Below the pieces are notes generated by a model. That model did not search any database. It was given only the letters and a program-made list of their open reading frames with translations, and was not told the DNA's origin. A program made the position numbers and the translations under genes. Of a DNA stretch of 64,000 nucleotides, positions 1,985 through 35,618 are shown one piece after another. Source of the stretch: an uncultured Methanosarcinales archaeon (GTDB lineage Archaea > Nanobdellota > Nanobdellia > Woesearchaeales > JAGLXL01); assembly GCA_964364045.1 (NCBI GenBank), contig CAYIKL010000001.1, positions 24,633 through 88,632 of the forward strand, in the 5' to 3' direction. Position 1 is the first letter of the stretch, and every line of letters starts with the position of its first letter.

Positions 1985-3044
1985 AACTCAGCTTAAAGAA
2001 TGTCATTGTTTTAAATGGTTCGGTTTTTATCATCTGCTGTGCCTTTGGGCTAAGGCTTCCTGAATGCAGATAGACAACGGGCACGCGTTTCAGTTGCCCC
2101 TCGACCAAAGCGCTGCTGATGTCTTTGTCGGTGCTCTTTTTTTTGTTCGTCACTTTGCATAAATACTGCAATTCGCCCACGGGCGAGGGTATCTTAACGA
2201 CATAACTCATTTCTGCATTTTTTTTAACAACTTCTTCACTCAAAATCGTTATTTCTTTTTGCTTGAAGAAATTCTGCACAGCCGTGATAAAACCATTCTC
2301 AGTCTCTTGAACCAGTTTCGATTTAGTTTCAGGTTTCTCCCGCTTTAACTCTTCCACTTTCGTCTCAATTTTTGGCTTTAATTCTTTTGTTTCTATCCTT
2401 GATTTTTCAATCTTTGGTTTCGATTCGATTTTCGGCTCTTCAATCGTTTCTGTTTTCTTTAACCGTTCCTGTCTTGTTTCCAGTCTCTCAACTTCTTTTC
2501 TGGGCCTTCCTCTCCGCTTTGACGCTATCTCTTCTTTAACGGCTTCTTTCACTTTTTCAATTGCTTCAGAAACTGTTGGCACCACTTCTTCCTTCTTCTC
2601 CTCAATGCCCAACTCTTTACGAATAATGGGTGTTACCTCTTCATCATTTAACATATACCATTTCCAGAACAATTCCTGCTTGCCTTCAAATGTTACATTT
2701 AAAGGTGCAGCAAAATCATTGATCTGCCGCAACGCAACTCTCATCAGCGGTGTCAGCTGCTCATCCCGCAGCACTTTCTTTTCCTTCAACACTTCATATG
2801 CTCTCAATTCTTTTTCGTTTAAATTATCTGCAAAGTGCTCAAGCTTTGCCTCCTGCCCGGACATGTAATAAAGCGGACTGCCGCCTATTTTTACCTTAGT
2901 TATCTTTATTTTCTTTCGTGCAACAAGCTCAGAGAGATACGCAGAGGCGAGAAGAATGTTTGTTTTAAGCCCTTTTGCAATATCAACAGGAAGCACAGGC
3001 CCAGTTGCCCGCATAATTGCAAGAATTTTCTCATCATCAGCCAT
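1974..3044 (-). CDS. Hypothetical tandem winged-helix protein with a K/E-rich linker, possibly TFE or RNAP-associated
   Basis: Two WH-like modules are visible (ILAIMRATGPVLPVDIAKGL...; ...FEGKQELFWKWYM), followed by a long Lys/Glu-rich low-complexity segment. The start is set at the internal Met MADDEK to avoid overlap with endA. Confidence 0.3.
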   Translation of the reverse strand: MADDEKILAIMRATGPVLPVDIAKGLKTNILLASAYLSELVARKKIKITKVKIGGSPLYYMSGQEAKLEHFADNLNEKELRAYEVLKEKKVLRDEQLTPLMRVALRQINDFAAPLNVTFEGKQELFWKWYMLNDEEVTPIIRKELGIEEKKEEVVPTVSEAIEKVKEAVKEEIASKRRGRPRKEVERLETRQERLKKTETIEEPKIESKPKIEKSRIETKELKPKIETKVEELKREKPETKSKLVQETENGFITAVQNFFKQKEITILSEEVVKKNAEMSYVVKIPSPVGELQYLCKVTNKKKSTDKDISSALVEGQLKRVPVVYLHSGSLSPKAQQMIKTEPFKTMTFFKLSYGR

Positions 3045-16846: not shown

Positions 16847-16871
16847 AGCGTTTTCTTCCTGTGCATTTTAT

Positions 16872-16959
16872 GGGCCGGTAGCTCAGCCTGGTAGAGCACA
16901 ACGTTCGCATGATTATCCGAGAGACGTTGGGGCCTCGGGTTCAAATCCCGACCGGTCCA
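16872..16959 (+). tRNA. tRNA-Ala(CGC) with a 14-nt intron at the canonical 37/38 site
   Basis: Hand fold: acceptor GGGCCGG/CCGGTCC with G3:U70, D-arm GCTC-AGCCTGGTA-GAGC, anticodon stem CAACG, loop TTCGCAT, then the intron gattatccgagaga, then 3' stem CGTTG. The T-arm is TCGGG-TTCAAAT-CCCGA and the discriminator is A. No CCA is encoded. Confidence 0.8.
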
Positions 16960-16990
16960 TTTTTAGAAAAATTTTGAATAATACCACCAA

Positions 16991-17706: not shown

Positions 17707-18864
17707 TTAAGCGGCTGGTATATAAAGTTTCCTGCTTTCTGCTTCAGTCAGAATCTCAAGCCTGTTTGCCGTCGGCAGCACTTCAACCATTTTCTTCAGC
17801 GAATCTTTCGCATACGCAACTTTTGCCTGTGTCTCTCCAAACGGCTTGCCTGCATTCTCGTATAGATCCATAAATGCCTTTCTCCCACAACGCCCCTCCA
17901 AAAATCCTAACGTTTTTCTGATCTTTGATAGGGGAACAAGAACTCCATCTTCCGGTCTTCCAAGAATCGCATGAACAGCAGCATATATGGCATCATCAGA
18001 CACCTGCGTGCTATTCGTCTGTCTTTTAGGGGTCATAAGCCGGTTAAGTTTTTTAAGCGCTTCTCCTTCGATTTGTCTTACTCGTTCCCGTGAAAGATCT
18101 ATTTTATCTCCTATTTCCTGGAGCGTCATAGGAGAATAACCATTCAAGCCATATCTCATTTGAAGTATGTCAGCATCGCGTTCGCTCAACCATTCCAGCA
18201 TCTTGTTCATGAGTTCTACTTCATTCCCATATTCCAATGCGTCACCCGGACGCTCTGTATATGAACTCTCCAACGCATCCACAAGCTGCCCCTTATCTCC
18301 AACATGTGTTTCAAGTGACACTGTTGTCCCAAGAGTTAATGCCTTATAAAAAAGCTCATACCTTTCTTCAGGAATGTCCAACTTTGCAGCAAGTTCATGC
18401 ATCGTCGGCTCTCTGCCATTTTCAGAAACCATCTCTCTCGCGACTCTTTTCCAGTGCGCGATTTTCGGTACCAAATATGATGGAACACGTACCGTCTTTA
18501 CCTGATCTACCAGTGCACGTTTGATACTTTGGTGTATCCACCATGTTGCATAGGTTGAGAATCTGCACCCTTCCTCCAAATCAAATTTGCCCGTTGCTTT
18601 CATCAATCCAAGATTCCCTTCTTCAATAAGATCAAGAAGTCCCAACCCTCTGCTGACATACTTTTTTGCAATGCTGACCACAAGACGCAGATTTGAGTTA
18701 ATCAGCGCTTCTCGCGCTTCTTCATCCCCTTCATGTACACGTTCCGCAAGATTCCTTTCTTCTTCTCGTGAAAGAAGCTCAAATCTGTTCATTTCTATAA
18801 AATATTGTTCCAGAACATCTCGTTCATCCATATGTGTGCTAGAATATACACGATTAATAAGCAT
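17707..18864 (-). CDS. Bacterial-type sigma-70 family factor homolog (regions 1.2-2-3-4) with a novel ~100 aa C-terminal extension
   Basis: The sequence [74 protein letters not shown] aligns almost residue-for-residue with region 2.1-2.4 of RpoD ([52 protein letters not shown]...DQARTIRIP). [13 protein letters not shown] corresponds to region 3. ILQMRYGL...[28 protein letters not shown] is region 4.2. Confidence 0.85.
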
Positions 18865-32415: not shown

Positions 32416-32934
32416 TCACTTTTTCTTTCCCTTTTCATCCTTTCCTTTTTCATCTTTTTTCTCATCTGAAGCAGCTTCAACTTTCTTGCGGTGTACGCCC
32501 AGCGTGACTTTACCCTTGTTCTTTCTGAAATTGCTTCTTGTTCTTTGTCCTCTCACCGGCAGCCCTTTTCCATGCCTGTCCCCTCGGTATGTCTTTATTT
32601 TACGCAGTCGCTTGATATCATTATCATTTGCATAATCTAAATCAGCGCCAATCAGATGCTTGTCTTCGTTTGTTTCAATGTCCCGCCGCCTGTTCACCAT
32701 CCATAAAGGCGCGCCGTTCTCCAGTGGTGCGCGGATAATTTTATCAAGCAGCTTTATTTTTTCTTCATCAAGCAAGCCGATCTGCGCGTTTTTCTCAACA
32801 TGCGCAAGCGAAACTACCATATTTGAAAATGAAACGCTCACTCCTTTGACTTTTAAGAGTGCTTGATGTACTTGCTTCAACCCATCAAGGTCAGTGTTTG
32901 CGATGCGTACGAGATGTTTTATTTGTCCTTCCAT
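32416..32934 (-). CDS. rps13: Ribosomal protein S13 (uS13) with a KE-rich tail
   Basis: HLVRIANTDLDGLKQVHQALLKVKGVSVSFSN...RGDRHGKGLPVRGQRTRSN. Confidence 0.85.
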   Translation of the reverse strand: MEGQIKHLVRIANTDLDGLKQVHQALLKVKGVSVSFSNMVVSLAHVEKNAQIGLLDEEKIKLLDKIIRAPLENGAPLWMVNRRRDIETNEDKHLIGADLDYANDNDIKRLRKIKTYRGDRHGKGLPVRGQRTRSNFRKNKGKVTLGVHRKKVEAASDEKKDEKGKDEKGKKK

Positions 32935-33394
32935 GTGAATAAGCTGAGAAATATTCCTCAGCCCTGTGCGCCGTTTGACTCGGGCTTAATACTGTGTTTG
33001 TTTCAGGAGGAGGTTTATAAATGTTTGTGTATCCTATTATTATCGTGTTTCCTCGTAATCTTGGTTGAACGTTCCACTTGTTCGCGCTAAAGAGATACTC
33101 TTTTGCATACAATAAGCACCAGTGAGTTCGCCACCCTAAAACATTGAAGCAAATAATGCAATAAGCCCTATCCTGAGCATAAAAATCAAAAAAGAATAGG
33201 TTTTGTCTTTTGGGTGCGAATTCAAAATTATTTCACTGATTAACTCCTTCACGAATTCCCCTGAGTGTTCTTATTTTATAAATTTTAAAGAGAGTACTAA
33301 AGTATTTTTATTATAAAGATACCATTTCCCCAGAAAACCATCCCTAAAAAAGAAAAAGGGCATCCAAAATGGCAATTATTTTCAATTCCATCGC

Positions 33395-33727
33395 TCAACA
33401 TAACGCTTCAAGCGCTGTTTTTACCTTGTCTCTCCTCAGCTTGCCAAGTGCATTGTTCTCAATGTGACGGATTTCTATCGTTCCCTTTTCTAACAACGCA
33501 GCGACATCAGTAATGGAATATAGCTGATCGGAAGCATTAAGGCCGAAACGGTGTCCGAGAACGTTCCTCTCTTCTTCGGTAAGACTGGCTGCAGCGAATA
33601 CCTCATTCACCGCCCGATGAAGTTTCGGTGCATTCCCATCAATAGGAGGCAAATCGTGCATTCCCGTGATTTTACCAAGGAACGCTCCAGCATACCACGG
33701 ATCATACGTGGTCCAATATTCAGCCAT
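33395..33727 (-). CDS. Small protein with a sigma-70 region-4-like HTH
   Basis: LTEEERNVLGHRFGLNASDQLYSITDVAALLEKGTIEIRHIENNALGKLRR fits the region 4.2 consensus (L..rER.VL.LRFGL.....tLeEvG..l.vTrERIRQIE.kALrKLR). The N-terminal ~50 aa are unrelated. Confidence 0.5.
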   Translation of the reverse strand: MAEYWTTYDPWYAGAFLGKITGMHDLPPIDGNAPKLHRAVNEVFAAASLTEEERNVLGHRFGLNASDQLYSITDVAALLEKGTIEIRHIENNALGKLRRDKVKTALEALC

Positions 33728-33753
33728 TCAACAACTGTTTTAAGAACTTCTTT

Positions 33754-35211
33754 TTAAGTTTTTCCAACACCAGACTTCTCTCCATACCTCGCCTTCCTCT
33801 TCGCACAATTCACCGGATTCTTGCATTTCGCACAAACATTCTCCGCACACTTCACGCCCAAACTCTGATAATAAGCAATATTTGAGCAATTGGGAGGTAA
33901 AATCGCTTTCTTCATCTTCGCATACCGCAACTGTCCCACAATATAGTTTTCCCGCAACTGCTCTGGATTCCTCTTGTTCCATTCAGCAACATACTTCTCC
34001 ACCTGCTCGTACGACCAGCCCACGCTTCGCAAAAAATTAATTAACACAAACAACCCTCGTTTCTTTCCATCCTCCATTCCTTTGGAAATCTTCTTGATGC
34101 AGTCGGGGAAATATTCTTCAGCAATTGCAGTCGCAGGTACTTCTATCTCTTTCGACAGTTTCTCTTCCTTCTGAGGAATGGTGTAATCAAATGCCTGGAG
34201 GAACAGATGACGCGCTTCATCGGGCTGTGCAGCTCGCGAAAGAAACATGTGATCAAACTTTATCTTCTCTGGCTTTGCATTTTCTTTGTTAAAATCAATT
34301 ACTCTTTCAGGATCGATGGGAACCGAGACCAAGCCAGACTTCTCATGCAGCGAATAGGGCGCACGATAGAGATGCCGTGAGGAGATGAGCAATGTATCTA
34401 TATCAATTATTTTTTTTGCATCAAATCTTTTTATAAACTGTGTTTTTCCGCAATTGCTGCACTTTTTGTATTCTTTTTTAATCATGATCTTTTTGCACTT
34501 GTCACAGCTCTTGTATGCGATCAGTTCATCAGTGACAAAACGGTTGTCGCACGACGGGCAGATGAATTCTATTTTTGCTCCTTCTTTCTCTTTGTCACAA
34601 TACAAACATCTCCTTTCGACAAGGTCCTGAATCGATAAGCCAAAAGCAGCAGCGACCTGCTCCGGTGTTTGTGCAGGAACAAAATCAAAGAATTTCTCCT
34701 CTAGCAAATGAATTAAATACAGCGCAATGCGCCTCGGTCCTTCAGGGAACAATGCCTGTACACTTTTTCCGTGCACCTTTTGAGGAAACGCTTCAAACGG
34801 CACGCCGATGTGGAAGCCCTTGTTGCCGCTGAACTTGATACTGACAGCATCTATCCCAAAACTTTTGATTAATTTGATGGCAACATCTGCAAATATTTTT
34901 GAGTATTCCCAGTTTTTGCAGTCGATGTCAATGACTAGGTCCCATCCGCTGCGCAGTTCAGCCAATTCACGTGGTTTCATGGTCGGCGATAGCTGCAGCG
35001 CATTGCGCCACCGCTCTTCCGAGCAGTGGAAAGAGGTTGCTCCCTGTTGTGCATTCTCAAGAACATCGTTTTCGTACTGAAGAATATCTGGTCGCGAGCC
35101 AAATGCCTCGCCATAGCGCGCCGCAACCTCGCGATCTCGTGAGTGTGCAACAAGTGCTTCCTGCACTTCTTTTCTCTTGTAATGCCGTAAGATTGTTCCG
35201 ATGGTGAGCAT
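33754..35211 (-). CDS. priS: DNA primase: PriS catalytic domain fused to a C-terminal helical Cys-cluster (PriL-CTD/PriX-like) domain
   Basis: PriS motifs are present (...WDLVIDIDCKNWEY... and FSGNKGFHIGVPFEAF), with a zinc knuckle CLYCDK...CPSCD. The C-terminal 150 aa are helical and end in C-x11-C-x4-C-x2-C. The length is 485 aa, longer than a stand-alone PriS. Confidence 0.75.
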   Translation of the reverse strand: MLTIGTILRHYKRKEVQEALVAHSRDREVAARYGEAFGSRPDILQYENDVLENAQQGATSFHCSEERWRNALQLSPTMKPRELAELRSGWDLVIDIDCKNWEYSKIFADVAIKLIKSFGIDAVSIKFSGNKGFHIGVPFEAFPQKVHGKSVQALFPEGPRRIALYLIHLLEEKFFDFVPAQTPEQVAAAFGLSIQDLVERRCLYCDKEKEGAKIEFICPSCDNRFVTDELIAYKSCDKCKKIMIKKEYKKCSNCGKTQFIKRFDAKKIIDIDTLLISSRHLYRAPYSLHEKSGLVSVPIDPERVIDFNKENAKPEKIKFDHMFLSRAAQPDEARHLFLQAFDYTIPQKEEKLSKEIEVPATAIAEEYFPDCIKKISKGMEDGKKRGLFVLINFLRSVGWSYEQVEKYVAEWNKRNPEQLRENYIVGQLRYAKMKKAILPPNCSNIAYYQSLGVKCAENVCAKCKNPVNCAKRKARYGEKSGVGKT

Positions 35212-35261
35212 GAATCGCCAAGAATAGCAAGGTTTAAATGAGTTTATGTTTTCGATTGCTT

Positions 35262-35618
35262 ATGATGAATGAAAGTGACACAATCACCGGGCTTATACAG
35301 CAGATCATCGATTATAATCTCTTGGTTATCGTTGAAGGAAAGAAAGATAAAAGTGCTTTAGAGCAGTTAGGTGTTCAACGCATCATGCAGCTTGAAGCCC
35401 ATCACGCATTAGCCGAAAAGATACATGACAAAGAAGTTGTGCTGCTCGTTGATTTGGATAAGGAAGGAAAGAAGATATACGGCAAGCTGAAAGACATGCT
35501 GAGCAGACGAGGTGTACGAGTGAATGACAAACTACGCCATTATTTGTTTAAAAATACCAAGCTGAGGCAGGTGGAAGGATTGGGAGGATTGGGGCATTAT
35601 TTGGGTAACGCAGACTAA
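35262..35618 (+). CDS. Small Toprim-domain protein
   Basis: LLVIVEGKKDKSALEQLGV...VVLLVDLDKEGKKIYGKL is the Toprim E...DxD signature. The gene is divergent from the primase gene. Confidence 0.55.
   Translation: MMNESDTITGLIQQIIDYNLLVIVEGKKDKSALEQLGVQRIMQLEAHHALAEKIHDKEVVLLVDLDKEGKKIYGKLKDMLSRRGVRVNDKLRHYLFKNTKLRQVEGLGGLGHYLGNAD

Follow-up and report, generated by a model that had tools for sequence, protein, structure and literature searches.

The window, by which we mean the whole stretch of 64,000 nucleotides that was analysed, is archaeal: it contains an archaeal RNase P RNA, a cluster of the order S13-S4-S11-RpoD...SecY-EMC3-L34e-L14e, and a fused PriS-PriL primase (33754..35211, minus strand; Pfam DNA_primase_S and DNA_primase_lrg). 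Immediately downstream of the primase lies a small ORF (33395..33727, minus strand, stop codon within the range), which in the list of open reading frames is intact from its first ATG to a TGA and encodes a protein of 110 aa that we called P0001. The ATG lies on the same strand as the primase, 26 nt downstream of its stop codon, and the GC content of the ORF is similar to that of the neighbouring genes. The gap between P0001 and S13 (32416..32934, minus strand) measures 460 nt with a GC content of 0.34-0.35, confirming the AT-rich region of about 460 bp described by the first-pass annotation.

On the other side of the primase, a small stand-alone Toprim protein is encoded divergently (35238-35618, plus strand), and this Toprim/primase pairing recurs in the loci L008 (also recovered as L027), L011 (also L031), L026 and L030. 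Elsewhere in the window, Rfam recognises a tRNA of 88-90 nt (16871-16960, plus strand; 55 bits), for which ARAGORN left the anticodon undetermined; this is probably an intron-containing archaeal tRNA.

Transcription signals around the 110-aa ORF

A TATA-like box, TTAAAAA, can be read in the sequence at 33751..33757 (minus strand), where it overlaps the primase stop codon and is centred 27 nt upstream of the P0001 ATG. The locus of P0002, the sole full-length relative of P0001 (see below), has the same TTAAAAAGAA box at the same distance (L004 9971-9978, about -27 from the ATG), with TTTAAAAAGAA found in that locus at the distance from the ATG that the P0001 box has. Since the position of the box fits the established archaeal promoter geometry, it suggests a candidate promoter belonging to P0001 itself, from which a leaderless mRNA would be produced. 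At the other end of the gene, the T-tract TTTTTCTTTTTT (33346..33357, minus strand), located 38-49 nt past the stop codon, reads as a candidate archaeal oligo-T terminator, which would separate P0001 from the S13 operon. The promoter box of this operon, TTTATAAA (33014..33021, minus strand), was identified by aligning the window with its closest relative, L026, in which it is conserved; it lies ~85 nt upstream of S13, and of the 460 nt between the two genes the other ~370 are not conserved with L026. P0001 is probably its own transcription unit, placed downstream of the primase and apart from the S13 promoter. It had been proposed to stand at the head of the ribosomal protein supercluster, but its own TATA-like box, the T-tract, the separate conserved S13 promoter and the variable nature of the slot (see below) led us to reject that P0001 leads, or is co-transcribed with, this cluster.

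The conserved part of the spacer (32935-33025, minus strand, aligned with ~2500-2600 of L026) consists of the S13 promoter box (AAACATTTATAAA) and a leader of ~57 nt, which has a possible AGCCC...GGGCT hairpin just ahead of GAGG and may be an r-protein autoregulatory leader. The non-conserved part includes an ORF for a hydrophobic peptide of 38 aa with a GTG start (MKELISEIILNSHPKDKTYSFLIFMLRIGLIALFASMF; 33136-33252, minus strand), preceded by TATA-like boxes, which matches nothing in Pfam and is lacking from L026. Rfam and tRNA scans of the 460-nt spacer returned nothing. Searches for operator-like inverted repeats near the promoters of P0001 and P0002 gave nothing convincing, and no target site or conserved neighbour was found for the two proteins.

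Distribution of the family and variability of the primase-S13 slot

Three Hainich groundwater contigs, from assemblies of the 0.1 µm fraction, carry a protein identical to P0001. The four copies of the ORF do not differ from one another, each of the 14 SNPs being located in the primase, so that strain polymorphism is uninformative on selection. Between the window and L001, 13 of the 14 differences counted over 2.9 kb are concentrated within 90 nt of the primase coding sequence (34312-34402), and 12 of these 13 are at third codon positions (calculated from the coordinates), a pattern resembling that of a recombination tract between strains on which purifying selection acts.

Searched exhaustively with HMMER, a set of 1.84 billion representatives yielded exactly one full-length relative, P0002, a protein of 121 aa with 46% identity to P0001 over its full length, which comes from a JGI metagenome contig (Ga0496705_000049, JGI 3300045983) that is another archaeal contig. 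Zero further members were found by a profile search of 5.8 billion clusters, a word-indexed homolog search with P0001 matched only P0001 itself, and nothing was obtained by scanning GTDB genomes and IMG/VR with the family pattern, nor by tblastn against phage records. In PADLOC, the protein resembles MzaA in region 4 only. No phage, viral or defence-system relatives of P0001 were thus found, and since the GTDB and IMG/VR scans, the phage tblastn and PADLOC gave nothing further, an origin from a mobile element or a defence system is not supported. P0001 is a real gene, as the 46%-identical, full-length P0002 has the same start and the invariant N-terminal residues. The retention of the same architecture at this level of identity also argues for a function of the family; two members allow no more, and provide neither a covariation nor a distribution signal. 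The family is a very rare accessory gene.

In order to compare the genomic context, the primase was used as a synteny anchor, yielding 21 GTDB and 35 metagenome loci, that is, 56 relatives of the Woesearchaeota/Pacearchaeota type. The primase orthologs place the window among Woesearchaeota/Pacearchaeota-type MAGs (GTDB Nanoarchaeota), with an identity of 48% or less to the primase of any GTDB species representative. A relative of P0001 near the primase is present in none of the 56 anchored loci. The closest relative, L026 (79% primase identity), has the same Toprim-primase-...-S13 order; in the slot that corresponds to 32935-33753 of the window it carries a gene for a 110-aa SET-domain protein (2155-2487, minus strand), on the strand opposite to the orientation of the P0001 slot. 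In L014, S13-S4 follow directly after the primase and nothing occupies the slot, and in several other relatives it is the L3 cluster that follows the primase. Given these three arrangements, the primase-S13 slot is variable and P0001 is a lineage-specific addition to it.

P0002 is found in another setting, adjoining an XPD-like DEAD_2 helicase divergently and located upstream of a small winged-helix protein, on a contig that shares no other genes with the collected loci. The position of P0001 right after the gene for the fused PriS-PriL primase, with the divergent Toprim gene upstream, and that of P0002 next to a helicase bring to mind an accessory of DNA replication or repair, in the form of a small DNA-binding subunit working with the primase or the helicase. 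The two neighbours are, however, different proteins in different orientations, and not one of the 56 primase orthologs has such a gene downstream. Moreover, we know of no replisome role for region 4 domains, and a function of this kind is in our view very unlikely.

The sigma region 4 domain and the N-terminal extension

Sigma70_r4 (PF04545) is the sole Pfam model matched by P0001 at E <= 10, with GerE, Sigma70_r2 and Sigma70_r3 not being matched; it covers aa 47-98 and scores 25.0 bits, a marginal pass over the gathering cut-off of 24.1. P0002 obtains 30.7 bits with the same model, which is above the Pfam cut-off. In NCBIfam the top match is RpoD_Cterm (E 6.5e-8, aa 35-107), one of 18 sigma models that match P0001, with no other family among the matches; all of these models are far under their own cut-offs and aligned only at their C-terminal ends. 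The sigma factor family of PHROGs is also matched (E 7e-7), and the two-member profile finds region 4 of E. coli RpoD in the PDB (residues 539-602, E 6e-9), including the first helix of region 4.1. General sigma models score the region 4 of P0001 at 25.0-32.5 bits, and the nearest region 4 by sequence is that of P0006, an unrelated 286-aa sigma (44% identity). The match to sigma region 4 noted by the first-pass annotation is therefore real, but its extent, given as the C-terminal 55 aa, was too short, as the similarity spans ~75 aa; likewise, an N-terminus unrelated to sigma is present, but it comprises only the first ~32 aa and not half of the protein. These matches identify aa ~33-110 as an entire sigma4 domain such as that of primary sigmas, comprising both region 4.1 and region 4.2 (aa 33-110; 33398..33631, minus strand).

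The helical sigma4 fold with its HTH is found in P0001, the fold-determining residues of sigma4 are intact, and the hydrophobic core of sigma70 region 4 is kept in both P0001 and P0002. The AlphaFold2 (AF2) model, for which the two-sequence alignment was the input and of which two of the five versions were poor, has a helix at aa 83-97 (TIEIRHIENNALGKL; 33437..33481, minus strand) that is the predicted recognition helix; it aligns with R584-L598 of E. coli sigma70 in the HMMER alignment, and the pattern I-E-[IV]-R-[HQ]-I-E is common to the two members. We mapped further residues to the E. coli sigma70 numbering from this alignment and that of P0001 with P0002. Among the positions that contact the DNA backbone or bases, R562, R588 (R87 in P0001) and K597 are kept in both proteins, as is Q589, which is H in P0001 and Q in P0002. 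R554 is replaced by E in P0001 and V in P0002, R584 is T in P0001 and R in P0002, and E585 and R586 are I and E, respectively, in both. Of the -35 contact residues R584, E585, R586, R588 and Q589, only R588 is kept in P0001. Such a set of kept and replaced residues is consistent with an HTH that binds DNA at sites other than the bacterial -35 hexamer. P0001 has an acidic pI of 5.75, and its region 4 taken alone is neutral (7.1, against 9.8 for region 4 of E. coli), which weakens the case for DNA binding, an objection that is tempered by the region 4 of the full sigma-70 homolog resident in the window being likewise acidic (pI 5.1).

The first 32 residues (33632..33727, minus strand) form an extension with a conserved motif and a predicted helix. 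Both proteins start with M-[AT]-E-Y-W, and the columns of the motif EYWxxYDPxxxGAFL...H...PID are invariant in their alignment. In the AF2 models described above, a helix is predicted at aa 10-23 of P0001, with a block-mean pLDDT of 88-90 for aa 11-30. As no match to aa 1-32 was found in Pfam, NCBIfam, PHROGs or PADLOC, this extension is new and specific to the P0001 family.

The extreme rarity of the family, its absence from the closest relative, the Pfam score barely over the cut-off and the location in a variable intergenic slot could also be explained by a decaying or neutral relic, i.e. a functionless ORF that remains as a fragment of a bacterial sigma gene gained by horizontal transfer. 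Yet the ORFs of the two lineages, whose products are 46% identical, are both intact and share their architecture and start, the non-sigma N-terminal motif is invariant, the fold-determining residues are intact, and the same promoter-like box occurs at the same distance in both loci. In addition, neither locus has remnants of regions 2 or 3 upstream, where the primase and the XPD-like helicase are found instead; together with the conserved start, this led us to reject a pseudogene fragment of a larger sigma. We regard a relic as unlikely.

The resident sigma-70 homolog and the proposed role of P0001

The full sigma homolog reported at the far end of the ribosomal protein cluster is indeed there (17707..18864, minus strand), between an EMC3/YidC-like gene and L34e/L14e and about 15 kb from P0001, and has regions 1.2, 2, 3 and 4 according to Pfam, followed by a C-terminal extension of ~100 aa. 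The SecY-EMC3-sigma synteny is kept on another archaeal contig (L061 2680-3846), with 54% identity and the same C-terminal extension, most or all of which is shared only by P0014 and P0015, and about half by P0046. The core formed by r1.2-r4 is ~60% identical to bacterial sigmas of 273 aa, several matches in this tier being annotated as Planctomycetota, and the sole context examined among these 273-aa sigmas (P0022) is bacterial. This points to a bacterial origin of the full sigma, after which it became fixed in archaea within the r-protein/SecY cluster.

BLASTP found no significant similarity between P0001 and the resident sigma, and the region 4 profile of the lineage of the latter gives P0001 17 bits, versus 115 bits for the resident sigma itself. 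On these two grounds we rejected a recent duplication of region 4 of the resident sigma as the source of P0001, and judged by sequence the region 4 of P0001 is not derived from that lineage. A profile of regions 1.2-2 matches only the full sigma in the 64-kb window, with no region-2-only ORF found.

The presence of P0001 and a full sigma in one genome, ~15 kb apart, had suggested a possible sigma/partner pair. In such a pair, P0001 would be a partner or decoy that competes or co-binds with the resident sigma for a DNA element or a docking surface, as a co-regulator or an anti-sigma-like brake. Several points are compatible with this proposal. Region 4 is a known regulator hub, structures with WhiB, Rsd and AsiA are among the fold matches, and the N-terminal GAFL helix could in principle fill the hydrophobic groove of region 4. 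For the sigma homologs of DPANN archaea, no anti-sigma factor has been described (PMC8204110). However, P0001 and the sigma gene are not adjacent and share no operon, there is no sequence affinity of P0001 to the resident sigma's region 4 (17 bits), and no known anti-sigma domain in Pfam or NCBIfam is resembled by P0001. Co-occurrence across relatives speaks against the proposal as well, since P0001 is absent from the 56 primase-anchored loci, with the SET-domain gene in its slot in the closest one, and no sigma gene is present on the 18.5-kb contig of P0002. Furthermore, a family of two members contrasts with sigma homologs that are reported to be prevalent in Woesearchaeota (PMC8204110), which means that most sigma-bearing relatives do without P0001. 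The pairing is unsupported rather than disproved, no special tie to the resident sigma having emerged, and we consider it unlikely.

A more specific version is that P0001 is a self-contained sigma4 whose YDPxxxGAFL amphipathic helix mimics the flap-tip helix of RNAP and caps the groove, the protein acting on the resident sigma or on its docking site on the archaeal machinery. What speaks for it is the co-residence in one genome and a loose likeness of GAFL to the RAIF motif of the flap tip, and we find it very unlikely. If true, P0001 would be the first regulator of the unexplained DPANN sigma-70 homologs.

Among known systems, region 4 of RpoD/SigA (group 1/2 sigma-70) is the homologous domain, which gives the best sequence, profile and structure matches; P0001 keeps its four-helix sigma4 fold, the signature RFG-L/I-D/N...Y-S/T-L/I and the HTH. 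It differs from RpoD/SigA in the R584/E585/R586 triad (T-I-E in P0001 and R-I-E in P0002), in the new 32-aa N-terminus and in its host, an archaeon without bacterial RNAP. The absence of regions 2 and 3 means that P0001 is not a sigma factor, and since region 1.2 is missing too, neither core RNAP binding nor the melting of a -10 element is possible for it in the way of a sigma. In the split sigmas SigO-RsoA (YvrI/YvrHa) of B. subtilis and gp55/gp33 of T4, the sigma functions are divided among small separate polypeptides, and the role of region 4 falls to one of them; here, in contrast, the 64-kb window has no region-2-only partner ORF and the resident sigma has its own region 4.

Region-4-type HTH modules are known outside sigma factors in YlxM, Tfx and LuxR/GerE. 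With no GerE or UPF0122 match at E <= 10, P0001 is clearly nearer to the region 4 of primary sigmas than to YlxM/UPF0122 or LuxR/GerE. The best functional analogy is the archaeal Tfx family, whose members EnfR (TON_1525) and MTH0916 have a sigma70-r4-like HTH and, as regular transcription factors, bind promoter DNA as dimers (PMC10570040). Tfx proteins have a basic N-terminal HTH and an acidic TFX_C alpha+beta domain, whereas in P0001 the HTH is C-terminal and part of a full sigma4 that includes 4.1. Membership of P0001 in Tfx was rejected on account of the C-terminal HTH, the lack of TFX_C, the pI of 5.75 and the absence of the Tfx (TIGR00721) and TFX_C models from its Pfam and NCBIfam matches at E <= 10. 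The sigma-70 homologs of Woesearchaeota (fam00359, Castelle et al. 2021; PMC8204110) are a bacterial-type module in the same DPANN lineage, with full r1.2-r4 in their case and r4 only in P0001.

Outside the window, we came across proteins composed of sigma region 4 modules, either repeated or inserted: in P0003 the region occurs seven times in tandem; P0005 is a repeat protein of 1620 aa from a Bacilli MAG, in a cluster that also holds a 447-aa annotated sigma factor with a consecutive NCBI accession; in P0007 two r4 copies flank a PGM_PMM_I domain; and P0008 combines RQC, two r4 copies and HTH_40. Proteins other than sigma factors evidently make use of region 4 as well.

The reading that we prefer, with a probability of roughly 0.5, is that P0001 is an accessory regulator with a sigma-region-4-type HTH, the N-terminal helix of which serves for dimerisation or capping. 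According to this proposal, sigma-70 region 4 in full, with the HTH and both 4.1 and 4.2, preceded by the family-specific extension of 32 residues, would have been gained by the lineage as a stand-alone module, located in the variable stretch that separates the S13 operon from the replicative primase. Expression would start from its own TATA box, giving a leaderless mRNA that is probably terminated ahead of the S13 promoter. The recognition helix of region 4.2 would bind DNA sequence-specifically, with a specificity unlike that for the bacterial -35 element, and by occupying sites close to archaeal promoters P0001 would act on a small number of genes as a repressor or activator, as Tfx/EnfR do, with the N-terminal helix acting as the dimerisation or capping element. 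Against the regulator reading stand the replaced -35 contacts (R584T, E585I and R586E) and the E or V at R554.

As a complete sigma4 of the primary-sigma type that stands alone in a DPANN archaeon and bears a novel N-terminal motif, P0001 adds a further form to the region-4-type HTH modules known outside sigma factors. Being found in two lineages only and absent from close relatives, P0001 cannot be a general part of the DPANN sigma system. The sigma-70 homologs of Woesearchaeota are a known puzzle, since neither a bacterial RNA polymerase nor an anti-sigma factor is present (PMC8204110), to which P0001 adds that region 4 also circulates in DPANN as an independent HTH module. The practical importance of P0001 is limited unless binding to the sigma homolog holds, and would be greater if the sigma or the archaeal RNAP were bound; at only 110 aa, the protein offers an inexpensive and easy way to assay interactions with DNA, with the sigma homolog and with RNAP.
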